From IMG/VR virus record IMGVR_UViG_3300033480_000006, positions 1-43,691 of that record: 43,691 bases of DNA. One strand, given 5' to 3'. This DNA is from a virus. Lineage: Duplodnaviria; Caudoviricetes. Both the position numbers and the translations under genes were made by a program. Position 1 is the stretch's first letter. Each line of letters starts with the position of its first letter. The notes under the pieces were generated by a model. It ran no database searches. It was not told the DNA's origin and was given only the letters and a program-made list of their open reading frames with translations. Below, piece after piece: positions 8,147-39,483 of this stretch.

Positions 8147-9209
8147 CGTCGTGCACGACCACGTGGTCAAGGGTCTGCATCTGCGCCGGTTCCGCGACAG
8201 CCAGGCGTACTACCTGTACTTCCGCACGCACGCTGGCGTCGAGCGGCGGCCGAAATTGGGTGACGCTGGTGCCATCTCTCTGGCCCAGGCGCGCCAGCTC
8301 GCGCGCGACTTGCTGGTGCAGGTGGCCGCCGGTGGTGATCCCAGTCAGGCTCGCGCCGCGGCGCGCAGCGAGGCTACGGTCGCCGAGCTCTGGGCGGAAT
8401 ACTGGAAGCGCCACGGCAGCAGCAAGAAGTCCGCAGCCGAGGACAAACGCATGTGGGAAAACTATCTTGCCAAGCCGCTCGGTATCAAAAAGCTATCGGC
8501 GGTCCGCTACGCCGATGTGGCTGACCTGGTGGCAGGTATGGCCGCCGCGCCCGTCCAGGCCAACCGTGTGCTGGCGCTGGCCTCCAAGATGTTCAACTTC
8601 GCCATCGCCCCGCTGCAGTGGGCCAAGGACAACCCCTGCGCCGGCGTCAAGCGGTACAAGGAGCGGGCGCGCCGGCGCAAGGCGAGCCGGCAGGAGATCG
8701 CTGCCCTGGTGGGCGCGCTGCGCCGGGAACTGGCCGGGCCCCACCGGGCGTCGGCTGCGTTCCTGTGGCTGCTGCTGACCACCGGTGCACGCAAGAGCGA
8801 GATCGCCGCCGCGCGCTGGGACGAATTGGACGGAAACCGCCTGCTGCTGGCCGAGCACAAGACCGACGCCGGAGGCTACGACCGCATCATCTACCTGCCT
8901 CCCGTGGCGCTGGAGGTGCTGGAGCGGCTGTCCCGGGGCCCGGGTACCATCACCGGCGTACGCGCGCCCAAGAAGCTGTGGGATCGGCTGAGGAGCGAAG
9001 CCGGCTGCCTGGATCTCACCATGCACGATTTGCGCCGCACCTTCGCCAGCGTGGCGCTGTCCACCGGCCAGGTGACGCTCGAGCAGGTGATGCAGATGCT
9101 GGGCCACACGTCCGCGCAGACCACCAAGGTCTATGCTTGGCTCATGGAAGATGCCGCCACCGAAGCCGTGGGCGTGGTGGCGGATCGGTTGATGCTGGAG
9201 GTCGTATGA
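8139..9209 (+). CDS. int: Tyrosine integrase with N-terminal arm-binding domain
   Basis: GLHLR...YYLYFR...LG..ISLAQAR arm domain; catalytic R (TGARKSE), K (HKT), HDLRR, LGH, Y (TKVY). Confidence 0.95.
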   Translation: MADVVHDHVVKGLHLRRFRDSQAYYLYFRTHAGVERRPKLGDAGAISLAQARQLARDLLVQVAAGGDPSQARAAARSEATVAELWAEYWKRHGSSKKSAAEDKRMWENYLAKPLGIKKLSAVRYADVADLVAGMAAAPVQANRVLALASKMFNFAIAPLQWAKDNPCAGVKRYKERARRRKASRQEIAALVGALRRELAGPHRASAAFLWLLLTTGARKSEIAAARWDELDGNRLLLAEHKTDAGGYDRIIYLPPVALEVLERLSRGPGTITGVRAPKKLWDRLRSEAGCLDLTMHDLRRTFASVALSTGQVTLEQVMQMLGHTSAQTTKVYAWLMEDAATEAVGVVADRLMLEVV

Positions 9210-32434: not shown

Positions 32435-32529
32435 GCCTTGTTACGTTGTTACGTATTCGCTTCAGAAAAAATTTTAAAAAGCCGGCTGCAGGAAGGACCC
32501 CGCTTCACGGTTCGGCCGCGATTTCCCGA

Positions 32530-32614: not shown

Positions 32615-33133
32615 TCAGCTGAAGATGTCGGGCGCGTCGCCTGGCTGGGGCCGGTCCACTGATTGATTATCAGTGGCGCCTTGCACGATTCTGCTAGGCA
32701 AATCAATCACTTGGGGCTCGCTCACGCCTAGCTGGTCGCGCACTGGTCGCAGCAAGCGGGCCCGGGCTTCCTGCAGCGTGGTGCCGATGTCGAGTGTCTG
32801 GGTCACGTTCATGTCAATCCGATCACCGTAGCGCTTGGTATTGCGCTTGCTGGCGATCCACTTTCGCATATCGGCCTGATTGCGGGCTTTCTGGGCATCT
32901 GGCTCAGTGTCCACGATCTCCAATGCGTCATCGACCAGCACATCGGCAAGCAGTTCTTGAGCTCGTACATAGTCGAGGCTGGCTTCCCTATCACCTGAAA
33001 GCCACCTATTGAACGTCCTGAGGTGAATTCCCTCTGCTGCAACCGCCTTTTTTAGCGGTATCCCGTCCAATATGCTATCGATGATCCGATTAAGCACAGC
33101 CTTATGCTCGTTTTCGTATAAGACCTCGTTCAT
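32615..33133 (-). CDS. terS: Terminase small subunit (Sf6 gp1-like)
   Basis: HTH (LKKAVAAEGIHLRTFNRWL), Y.RAQE..AD..DDALEIVD, RKWIASKRN.KRYGD; upstream of terL. Confidence 0.85.
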   Translation of the reverse strand: MNEVLYENEHKAVLNRIIDSILDGIPLKKAVAAEGIHLRTFNRWLSGDREASLDYVRAQELLADVLVDDALEIVDTEPDAQKARNQADMRKWIASKRNTKRYGDRIDMNVTQTLDIGTTLQEARARLLRPVRDQLGVSEPQVIDLPSRIVQGATDNQSVDRPQPGDAPDIFS

Positions 33134-33234
33134 AGATTAAACCTATCACAGTTCCGAAGCGTTGCAAACAATCAATTTTAATCTTGTTGATTTTAGCGTA
33201 ACATAAACGCATCAACCCACCAGGAGAAAGAACC
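33134..33234. promoter_or_regulatory. AT-rich divergent control region between terS and the first early gene
   Basis: Divergent gene arrangement; TAACAT at 33199-33204; AATCAA/TTGATT dyad; no unambiguous -35/-10 pair. Confidence 0.55.
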
Positions 33235-33651
33235 ATGAACCAAACCGAATTTGTCCGCGGCGGCTACGTGAACGAAGCCCTCGCTATTGCCGTTATCCGC
33301 CAGTGCGGGGGCTGGGAAGCCTTCAAAGAGATGGCGCAAGACGTCGCCAGCCACGGCGCAGACGCAGGATACGGCCGCTGGACCTACTACGCCGACACGC
33401 GCCGCTTCTACGCCGTCAACCGCGATTCCATCCTGCTGCAGCTGCGCGCGCTGGCTGAAGACCTGAGCGAAGACCCCATGGCCGTAGTGCGCGGATTTCG
33501 TTGCCTGAAGGACGCCACGGAATCCGAAGTGGGCCTGACTCTGTACGGCAAGAAAAGCCAGCACGATACGCAAGTGGCCAATGCTCTGGCGTGGTTCGCC
33601 TTGGAAGAGACCTGCCGGGCCTACTGCGACGAGTTGGAGCGGATAGCCTAA
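33235..33651 (+). CDS. First early gene, conserved acidic phage protein
   Basis: AGGAG SD; HGADAGY..WTYYADT..F and NALAWFALEE motifs. Confidence 0.8.
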   Translation: MNQTEFVRGGYVNEALAIAVIRQCGGWEAFKEMAQDVASHGADAGYGRWTYYADTRRFYAVNRDSILLQLRALAEDLSEDPMAVVRGFRCLKDATESEVGLTLYGKKSQHDTQVANALAWFALEETCRAYCDELERIA

Positions 33652-33712
33652 CCCCCGACCACGCCAGCCATTGCGCCTAGCCCGCTGGGCGCAATACCGG
33701 GCGATGTTGCCT
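33648..33712 (+). repeat. Intergenic 65-bp hairpin repeat, copy 1
   Basis: 63/65 identical to 33980-34044; starts at a TAA stop and is followed by a TTTGGAGA SD. Confidence 0.95.
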
Positions 33713-33729
33713 GACTTTGGAGACTGCTG

Positions 33730-33918: not shown

Positions 33919-33983
33919 CCCACCAACAACCCTGGCCCTTTCCAGTCCACAACGGAAAGCCCGTGCCAAAACCCAAAAGCTAA
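33915..33983 (+). CDS. 22-aa peptide MTHQQPWPFPVHNGKPVPKPKS
   Basis: ATGA-coupled start; TAA stop coincides with the start of repeat copy 2. Confidence 0.5.
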   Translation: MTHQQPWPFPVHNGKPVPKPKS

Positions 33984-34044
33984 CCCCCGACCACGCCAGC
34001 CATTGCGTCTAGCCCCCTGGGCGCAATACCGGGCGATGTTGCCT
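33980..34044 (+). repeat. Intergenic 65-bp hairpin repeat, copy 2
   Basis: 63/65 identical to 33648-33712. Confidence 0.95.
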
Positions 34045-34060
34045 TGATTTGGAGAAAGAC

Positions 34061-34464: not shown

Positions 34465-34522
34465 GCGTGGGCCGCCCCCTAACCTTTCCGCCCACCCTTT
34501 CTCTATTTCCCCGAGCCCCATT

Positions 34523-34800
34523 CAGAACAAGAACAAAATTTGGATGACGTAAGTCGTTGATTTCATTACATATCTCTACTTATTCTATATTTATATTAAA
34601 TAAAGTAGATAGAGATATGCATATAAACAACCACCGTAACAATAAATGCTGCGCACCGCGCTCCCATGGCTGCTCCAGATTCTCCAGCAAACCCGCAAAC
34701 TGAAACAGAAACAGAAGAACACCCCCAAAAACACCATTTTCTCCTTTAAAATCAAGGACTTACGTTGTTCTATCTGTTTTCAGCGATCCAGATCATCCAG
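34523..34800. other. AT-rich non-coding region with nested inverted repeats (candidate replication origin or attP)
   Basis: ACGTAAGTCGTTGATTT (34547-34563) / AAATCAAGGACTTACGT (34749-34765), 16/17 inverted; CATATCTCTA / TAGAGATATG (34569-34578 / 34610-34619) around an almost pure A/T core. Confidence 0.55.
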
Positions 34801-34929
34801 AACTTTCCGCCCATTCTGGGGCCAAAAACCCATCCCGGAAGCCCTAAACGTAACAACTATGCCTCCCAGTCCCCTATTAGCCAAAATCAATTGGTGTCAC
34901 CTCAACAACCGAATTAAACTCTCCCCAAC

Positions 34930-35057
34930 ATGCTGATTCAGGAGCGGCGTAGCTGCCCCAGGAAACCGGTGAAACATGAGACCAGACCCCGAGTGGGCAA
35001 CCCTCGCAAGGAATGGCACGTCGGCCGCACCAGTAAACGCCGCTCCTGAATCCGCAT
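34930..35057 (+). ncRNA. Candidate structured ncRNA / leader RNA
   Basis: Perfect 16-bp inverted repeat 34935-34950 / 35037-35052 (21 bp with 1 mismatch) enclosing short hairpins, one with a GCAA tetraloop; TAAACT -10-like hexamer at 34915-34920. Confidence 0.6.
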
Positions 35058-35085
35058 TTGCCAACGATACGAAAGGACCCCCGCC

Positions 35086-35286
35086 ATGAACGTCTACCTC
35101 ACTCTCCTTCTGAAATACGCCATATCGGCGGTGATACTCGCTTGGTTGGTGGGGCTGGTCAAAGGTTGGCACAAAGACGGTTTCTCCGGCGCGTTTCAGT
35201 CCAGCCTCTACTACGCCATAACGGTCGTGCTCTCCCTGGCCGCTTTGGGCTGCGCTGTGCTGGGTCTAGCGTTCGTTTTCAGCTGA
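35086..35286 (+). CDS. Small 2-TM membrane protein
   Basis: AAGGA SD; two hydrophobic helices. Confidence 0.75.
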   Translation: MNVYLTLLLKYAISAVILAWLVGLVKGWHKDGFSGAFQSSLYYAITVVLSLAALGCAVLGLAFVFS

Positions 35287-35299
35287 AAGGACCCCCACC

Positions 35300-35563
35300 A
35301 TGAGCACTCTCACCCAAGCCCAACGCAACCAGATCCGCTACGCCTTGGAAGACGCCGGCATCCCCGAAGTTCTGGCGTTCATGGCGGCGCGAAACGCTAC
35401 CAACCTGGACACGAAGCACACTGGGCGCCTTTCCGTCCTGTTCCTCTGGAGCCAAAGCCCCGAAGGCCACGACTTCTGGCAAATGGCGGCGGCTACCGCC
35501 GAGCAAACCTTTTCAGCGGGGGGGGCGCCCATCGAATTCCCCAACCTGAACCGCGGGTACTGA
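35300..35563 (+). CDS. Hypothetical protein, paralog of 39253-39483
   Basis: RYALEDAGIPEVLAFMAARN and FLWSQSPEGHDFW motifs. Confidence 0.8.
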   Translation: MSTLTQAQRNQIRYALEDAGIPEVLAFMAARNATNLDTKHTGRLSVLFLWSQSPEGHDFWQMAAATAEQTFSAGGAPIEFPNLNRGY

Positions 35564-35564
35564 C

Positions 35565-35867
35565 ATGCCCGTCCCCAAAGGCTCAGGCAAGCACGGCCGC
35601 CCAGCGTTCGGCCAGGCCGCCCACATCATCGCCAAGTTCGGCGGCGAGCTCACCCTGGCCGGCCTGATCGGCTGCAGCCGCATCACGGTGTTCCGCTGGC
35701 AGTACGCCCCGCCAGCCGGCACCAACGGCCTGGTGCCCCACCACCAGCAAGCCAAGATCACCGCCATCGCCCGGGAGCAGGGCGTCCTGCTCACCGCCGA
35801 AGACTGGGCCCCGCGGCGTATCCGCTACCCTGCCGAAACCAAAATCCTTGAGGAGATTCTGAAATGA
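35565..35867 (+). CDS. Cro/YdaS-like HTH transcriptional regulator
   Basis: IIAKFGG..LAGLIGCSRITVFRW...G.VP pattern. Confidence 0.75.
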   Translation: MPVPKGSGKHGRPAFGQAAHIIAKFGGELTLAGLIGCSRITVFRWQYAPPAGTNGLVPHHQQAKITAIAREQGVLLTAEDWAPRRIRYPAETKILEEILK

Positions 35868-39063: not shown

Positions 39064-39256
39064 ACAAGACAAGGCTGTAGCGCTGGCGGAGTTGGAGAAT
39101 TACAACGCTACGCGGACAGATGAACTGGCGGCATCGGTGCACTAGTGTGCTGAGTTGCAGGCGCGAGCGGATGGGTTAGAGGAACACTTGCGCGTCTGCA
39201 ACGAATACATCAAGCAGCTTGAGCGTGCCGCCATGAACAAGGATCAGAAATCATGA
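39053..39256 (+). pseudogene. Coiled-coil ORF interrupted by an in-frame TAG at 39143-39145
   Basis: AAGGAG SD and GTG start; the frame continues past the TAG to a TGA overlapping the next ATG. Confidence 0.6.
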
Positions 39257-39483
39257 CCATCACCCAAAAAGACCGCGACGCATACCGCTACGCCCTGGAA
39301 GACAGTGGAGTTCCGGAGGTGATCGCTTTCATGGCGGCAAGGAACTTGGATGGCGAGAATACATTCAGCAACCGATCAACTGCGTCTTTCATGATTGGCC
39401 TAGGTTTCATGTGGGACGATACCAAAGAGCGGGCTGATTTTTGGTATGCCATCTACCTAGAAACTATTGAGGTCTGCAAATGA
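39253..39483 (+). CDS. Hypothetical protein, paralog of 35300-35563
   Basis: RYALEDSGVPEVIAFMAARN and FMWDDTKERADFW. Confidence 0.8.
   Translation: MTITQKDRDAYRYALEDSGVPEVIAFMAARNLDGENTFSNRSTASFMIGLGFMWDDTKERADFWYAIYLETIEVCK

Follow-up and report, generated by a model that had tools for sequence, protein, structure and literature searches.

A single-copy 21-bp inverted repeat at the head of the early genes of a podophage, possibly a MITE-like insertion

What is a 128-nt stretch enclosed by a long inverted repeat doing immediately ahead of the early genes of a podophage? The window, that is, the whole stretch of DNA analysed here (IMG/VR record IMGVR_UViG_3300033480_000006; 43,691 nt), is the complete genome of a wetland podophage, in which a 126-nt direct repeat joins both ends. 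The phage encodes a terminase, T7-like head and tail genes, PolA, a primase-helicase, a DUF2800 exonuclease, a RuvC-like resolvase and a tyrosine integrase, and its closest named relatives are the Ralstonia phages DU_RP_II, C22 and RpY1 (TerL, 59%; Cro-like gene, 57%). The element follows an AT-rich control tract and precedes the rightward early genes, at a place where a sequence-only reading had seen a candidate novel structured RNA. The features of the locus are the following:

32615..33133, minus strand: terminase small subunit (TerS), used as synteny anchor
34547..34765, no strand: AT-rich tract flanked by a 17-bp inverted repeat, a family-type control or origin-like region
34891..34920, plus strand: candidate promoter TTGGTG-18-TAAACT, a weak 7/12 match with a predicted start near A34927
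34925..34929, plus strand: left CCAAC copy of a 5-bp direct repeat, abutting the left arm; may be a target-site duplication
34930..34950, plus strand: left arm, 21 nt; its AGGAG pairs with CTCCT of the right arm
34951..35036, no strand: interior, 86 nt
34990..35006, plus strand: GCAA-capped hairpin, the sole well-determined part of the plus-strand interior (p 0.95)
35037..35057, plus strand: right arm, 21 nt; the next TTG (35058-35060) could pair with the CAA preceding the left arm
35061..35065, plus strand: right CCAAC copy, separated from the right arm by 3 nt
35071..35077, plus strand: Shine-Dalgarno sequence GAAAGGA, within a 19-nt ribosome-binding repeat and outside the long stem
35086..35286, plus strand: 66-aa hydrophobic orphan ORF, the first gene after the element
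35300..35563, plus strand: 87-aa ORF of unassigned function, a paralogue of 39253-39483 (45% identity over 66 aa)
35565..35867, plus strand: Cro-like HTH gene, conserved in the family (P22_Cro, E 0.02, below the cut-off)

The inverted repeat is real, unusual and an orphan. Its two 21-nt arms, 86 nt apart, are 95% complementary and could form the long closing stem that had been proposed, in which 20 of the 21 positions are Watson-Crick pairs, the remaining one is a T-C mismatch and G-U pairs are absent; the stem can be extended by three pairs outward and, past a small internal loop, by four pairs inward. All the short motifs quoted in the earlier reading are likewise found in the sequence. With a score of 18, this is the only inverted repeat in the window that combines a spacer of 40-200 nt with a score of at least 13, and none of 100 block-shuffled genomes reached the same value (maximum, 16). 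Folding of the whole 128-nt element, which has a GC content of 61%, gives z-scores of -4.9 on the plus strand and -6.3 on the minus strand.

The structured multibranch core that the stem was thought to enclose is not supported. Taken alone, the 86-nt interior folds no better than shuffled sequences (z of +0.78 on the plus and -0.77 on the minus strand), and when the arms were kept and the core was shuffled, 414 of 500 plus-strand and 120 of 500 minus-strand shuffles were as stable as the native sequence or more so. Among the three inner hairpins drawn for the plus strand, the GCAA-capped CGAG/CTCG hairpin was recovered, whereas GGT/ACC (pairing probability 0.06) and TGGC/GCCG (0.04-0.08) were not; CTG/CAG pairs with a probability of 0.6-0.7 on this strand. 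The structure as originally drawn lies 6 kcal/mol above the MFE (-50.9 versus -57.0), and no pure Watson-Crick helix in the interior is longer than 5 bp. With a core structured at chance level and no homologue in the collections searched, the description as a novel structured RNA is not supported, and nothing yet demonstrates a new RNA family.

The fold is cleaner on the minus strand, for which a four-way junction overlooked by the first reading is predicted, with helices of 7 bp, 3 bp and 17 interrupted pairs and six G-U pairs; the MFE structure is identical to the centroid (-68.6 kcal/mol) and most pair probabilities exceed 0.9. We regard this junction as a lead only. A functional RNA encoded on the minus strand, antisense to the early leader, appears decidedly unlikely: the coincidence of MFE and centroid, the G-U pairs and the high pair probabilities would suit such a molecule, as would the presence of cI on the same strand in relatives, but the fold is not significant against shuffles (120/500 are as stable and 53/500 as well defined). 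Furthermore, no TTG..TAnnnT site is found on this strand upstream of the element, where only a bare TATCGT hexamer occurs 6 nt away, no terminator follows, and a model of the minus-strand fold matches nothing else.

Homologues were sought in several collections. The Rfam/Infernal search suggested with the original reading yielded no match at gathering score in the window and none over 34930-35057 at E values up to 10, and ARAGORN called no tRNA, in agreement with that reading. Blastn with the element returned no homologue from 50,697 phage records, 72,556 plasmids and 5,426 E. coli genomes, and blastn and nhmmer searches of 85 related-phage loci (735,525 bases) did not detect the element, the best exact match being 13 nt. 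A covariance model (R1) matched only the element itself among 87 sources and none of 50 whole records (50 of the 59 listed); as it was built on one sequence, with no outside positive control, its blanks are weak, and the homologue blanks in general are weak negatives for a diverged RNA. Several candidates were rejected, including all 71 matches from four exact-pattern scans of viral contigs, which have no flanking stem (4/4, 5/5, 34/34 and 28/28), locus L011, which shares 21 nt with the element, but inside a small minus-strand ORF, and is not matched by the covariance model, and the plasmid arm matches H43 and H47, which have no partner arm. Scans anchored on Cro recovered L013 and L048 from viral contigs and, from metagenomes, the record itself and L050, a locus that begins downstream of the element's position; genome contigs gave a single weak match of 28 residues. 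A scan anchored on the single protein TerL found none. Contigs of four other runs contain pieces within 34501-34912 and 35182-35862 and none in 34913-35181, where the uncovered part proves nothing (one run was covered by the analysis to 34%). No RNA run is among those listed as sharing this sequence, which has no bearing on expression.

The location of the element is compatible with a leader: the sole plausible site of a rightward promoter precedes it, and the first rightward early gene follows. As first noticed, TAAACT ends at 34920, 9 nt ahead of the stem, and the first Shine-Dalgarno sequence near the stem starts at 35071, the stem ending at 35057. TTGGTG-18-TAAACT is the single promoter-shaped site on the plus strand within 34565-35240; it was not called in a consensus promoter scan, and its TTG..TAnnnT shape recurs in 21 of 24 related loci. 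We infer that the element is transcribed from this weak candidate promoter. A leader processed out of the stem, as had been proposed, is plausible, given that the predicted 21-bp stem would satisfy the length requirement of RNase III, 12 bp being sufficient for the E. coli enzyme according to section 2.2.2 of PMC8708148. The other role proposed for the leader, control of elongation into the operon, finds no support: the terminator scan called none, in line with the lack of terminator resemblance remarked on earlier, and only three T follow the stem, where an intrinsic terminator would be a short GC-rich hairpin with a run of U behind it.

Short ORFs running across the element (39 aa from 34930 and 37 aa from 34976 on the plus strand; 39-49 aa on the minus strand) were set aside for want of support. 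The 37-codon ORF (34976-35089, plus strand) has its start within the element, and its stop codon shares bases with the ATG opening the 66-aa gene, which could couple the translation of the two or be due to chance. A role as CsrA sponge was dismissed, the number of unpaired AGGA motifs (two) being near chance by a rough estimate.

The best explanation, which we hold tentatively and at somewhat less than an even chance, is that a MITE-like insert sits at the beginning of the early transcript and acts there like a Correia element via RNase III. A single-copy 21-bp inverted repeat around 86 nt would have inserted as a MITE-like module at the transcription start; a stem of at least 21 pairs would then head the early RNA, leaving the Shine-Dalgarno sequence outside, and this stem would form once the right arm has been made. 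It would be a likely binding target or substrate of host RNase III, which would thereby alter early mRNA stability, whereas the interior would be passenger sequence and any released RNA of 90-100 nt a by-product. The insertion, the formation of the stem in vivo and the action of RNase III are each presumed here; membership in a MITE family is not established, and it is on this reading that the element would function like a Correia element (CREE).

Several observations are consistent with an insertion. In size and arms, the element (128 bp in total, with 21-bp arms) agrees with the definition of prokaryotic MITEs in the pertinent part of PMC10969869, namely, less than 500 bp, TIR of 4-30 bp, flanking direct repeats, no transposase and typically AT-rich. 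G-U pairs are missing from all 21 arm positions, as would be anticipated for terminal repeats at the DNA level. The flanking CCAAC repeat, which was noticed post hoc, has a chance probability at random position pairs of 1.1% with one end flush and of 6.0% with any offset up to 3. Furthermore, the distance from the -10 hexamer to the first ATG is 165 nt in the window as opposed to 24-86 nt in 21 of 24 related loci, in a comparison of hand-picked, mostly non-redundant loci (three had no site) that took the nearest TTG..TAnnnT site and was mostly measured to the start of the tblastn hit, which favours short values. By simple arithmetic, subtraction of the element and one CCAAC copy leaves 29 nt; removing the element would thus restore the short promoter-to-start distance usual in the family, which is suggestive of an insertion but not proof. 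Lack of conservation of the inverted repeat and identity as a MITE, both named in the sequence-only reading as observations that would speak against it, are partly borne out, in that none of the related loci examined has the stem and the element is flanked by a 5-bp direct repeat.

Other observations go against this reading. The CCAAC repeat is out of register by 3 nt and only modestly improbable by chance, the 61% GC content contrasts with that of the typically AT-rich MITEs, the promoter matches at only 7 of 12 positions, and the cleaner fold is that of the minus strand. Searches of the phage itself, the 50,697 phage records, the 72,556 plasmids and the 5,426 E. coli genomes revealed neither a second copy nor an empty site nor a cognate IS end, and the relatives compared include none close enough to align across the insertion site.

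Known systems place these points in context. Correia elements inserted between promoter and gene, for instance, before mtrCDE, are cut by RNase III at their repeats, according to the passages on them in PMC2649163 and PMC10969869. As portrayed in the same passages, Correia elements (CREE/nemis) and MITEs share with the element a size of ~130 bp, terminal inverted repeats of 20-26 bp, a location between promoter and gene, a predicted RNase III stem-loop substrate and a flanking direct repeat. The element differs from them, as far as these passages go, in being single-copy, GC-rich and phage-borne, with no cognate IS or empty site found, no sequence likeness shown and a direct repeat that is 3 nt off register and is not TA; unlike the Correia elements described there, it has no IHF consensus inside. 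The RNase III sites T7 R1.1 and that of the lambda N leader, as treated in part of PMC8708148, also consist of a long stem with an internal loop in early RNA, but these are compact hairpins, whereas here the arms are 86 nt apart and unconserved in the family. If the insertion reading is correct, the locus is a minor instance in which a MITE-like insertion has readjusted an early phage promoter whose repressor has been lost, and is of local interest; a conserved RNA in the interior, if true, would matter much more.

A neutral accident, in which one arm arose as a copy of the other through a local template switch or inverted duplication, with a stem that may form but is unselected, is rather unlikely. 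Watson-Crick arms with a single mismatch, an unstructured interior, the lack of a homologue in the collections searched and a slot that is variable in the family would all agree with such an origin. However, an 86-nt spacer is long for template-switch events, the left arm begins at most 3 nt from the predicted start site, and the direct repeat together with the excess promoter-to-start length points to added rather than overwritten DNA. We also considered integron attC sites, which have RYYYAAC ... GTTRRRY ends, an unpaired spacer and extrahelical bases, and rejected them upon inspection, as the right end of the element has no GTT and the spacer is fully paired.

A selected small RNA on the plus strand, carried as the first cargo of the early operon, cleaved at the stem and acting in trans, is unlikely. 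The element heads an accessory slot before two poorly known genes, and the one GNRA hairpin is well determined, but the plus-strand interior is less stable than its shuffles (414/500), and neither a homologue nor a match to an Rfam family was found. In one form of this reading, the RNA would be a decoy for a host defence protein, e.g. a retron RT; that an orphan early ncRNA mimics the stem and branch point of retron/DRT RNA and titrates a defence RT, as an RNA anti-retron, is extremely doubtful. The stem length resembles that of retron a1/a2, and TAG after the end of the left arm is a partial match to the TTA-G branch context; in retrons, the branching G adjoins the stem, often after TTA (bioRxiv 10.1101/2024.01.25.577267 section 6). 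Compared with that section, the plus strand has a G two bases after the left arm. The minus strand resembles a retron in its predicted pair of short hairpins and single long one, but C rather than G comes after the TTA that adjoins the arm. A terminal a1/a2-type inverted repeat closing a multi-hairpin interior is common to the element and the retron msr-msd as defined in the relevant part of PMC7736814, but the long stable msd stem of that definition is missing: a longest pure Watson-Crick helix of 5 bp leaves no msd stem. No Rfam msr model matched, and a search for a linked RT (PF00078) found none in the phage (0/1 genome; control, 3/14). Judged by the described features and the Rfam msr models, with no RT and no msd-type stem, the element is not a retron. 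Other candidates for comparison, namely conserved leader RNAs of lambdoid prophages and RT-linked RNAs, differ from the element in their conservation or their RT linkage. A literature search at the listing level found neither an RNA decoy against RT-based defence nor an RNA replacing cI in this podophage group.

An invertible DNA switch, in which the leader would change when a tyrosine recombinase inverts the 86-nt interior, is very unlikely, although the geometry is that of the flagellar switch in C. difficile, a tyrosine integrase is encoded by the phage and the interior folds differently in its two orientations. A length of 86 bp is short for inversion unless bending proteins assist. Moreover, no serine invertase was found in the phage, extra copies of the arm motif do not exceed chance and none with fewer than three mismatches lies near the integrase, there is no promoter or terminator inside, and the arms are GC-rich. 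The C. difficile switch, as outlined in part of PMC5386303, spans 154 bp and has 21-bp imperfect repeats in a 5' UTR; the element shares the arm length and leader position but differs in its 86 bp and its GC-rich arms.

The slot occupied by the element is the one in which relatives carry cI. Both TerS and Cro are present in 30 of 82 related loci, several of the 30 being near-duplicates, and cI is located between them in 27; it is absent from C22, where a remnant persists, L071 and L074, and DU_RP_II likewise has no cI in that stretch. In the window, no cI was detected by tblastn, profile or HTH_3 search. Repeats scoring at least 15 occur in 4 of the 30 loci, as operator repeats or flanking the AT-rich tract. 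The stem is absent from the four other cI-less relatives (L071, L074, C22 and DU_RP_II), indicating that it is not a required substitute for cI. These relatives count against an RNA immunity factor that replaces the missing repressor in the manner of P4 CI or P1 C4 RNA by pairing with its own transcript, a reading that we find barely credible, despite the retained integrase, the missing cI and the element in its slot. The longest complement of the element in the genome is 11 nt, matched or exceeded in 175 of 200 shuffles, local complements reach at most 7 nt, and there is no Rfam match to C4 or isrK. The P4 CI and P1 C4 RNAs have complementary targets in the same transcript. Like these and HK022 put, the element would represent an RNA at the head of an early operon in a phage without the usual protein regulator, but it has no complementary targets, no Rfam C4 match and no tandem put-like hairpins, and it is unconserved.

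The comparison of related loci reveals repeated loss of cI in the family (the window, L071, L074, L163 and L051), with the window retaining an intact-looking integrase and no repressor gene found, and variable cargo at the same slot. No family could be assigned to the 66-aa orphan ORF, for which the homologue search returned only itself, and the ESM Atlas provided no usable lead on either cargo gene (the 66-aa and 87-aa ORFs). In L050, a 95% relative, a pentapeptide-repeat gene precedes Cro in place of the 87-aa ORF; the different gene before Cro in this relative implies that cargo at that position turns over fast.

Additional sequence features were observed in the surrounding region. The AT-rich palindromic tract, which has similar counterparts in relatives, is possibly an origin or packaging region. 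The arms of its 17-bp flanking inverted repeat fit the IHF-site consensus; exact matches to this consensus at 34550-34562 (minus strand) and 34750-34762 (plus strand) are mutually inverted and flank the tract, and the window contains three such matches versus 0.34 expected. The motif GTAACA, which in relatives is operator-like and overlaps the -10 element of the Cro promoter, is found in the window at 33198, 34636, 34850 and 36902 on the plus strand and at 32439 and 32447 on the minus strand. Two 74-nt intergenic copies (33649-33722 and 33981-34054), 93% identical and each located directly after a stop codon, fold into the same long hairpin on the plus strand (z about -1.9), with one of the differences converting a C-G pair to U-G; this repeat was absent from the related loci searched. 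Ralstonia phage C22 (L051) carries on its minus strand (9140-9206), among small early genes, a hammerhead-like core that is unannotated in the record and scores 19.4 bits against Rfam Hammerhead_3 (E 0.11), which is under the gathering score. Finally, the 19-nt ribosome-binding repeat, 95% identical between 35071-35089 and 35285-35303, precedes consecutive cargo genes, and similar motifs are found before Cro in L050 and before 40107 in the window; these repeats may possibly serve as joints for cassette exchange.
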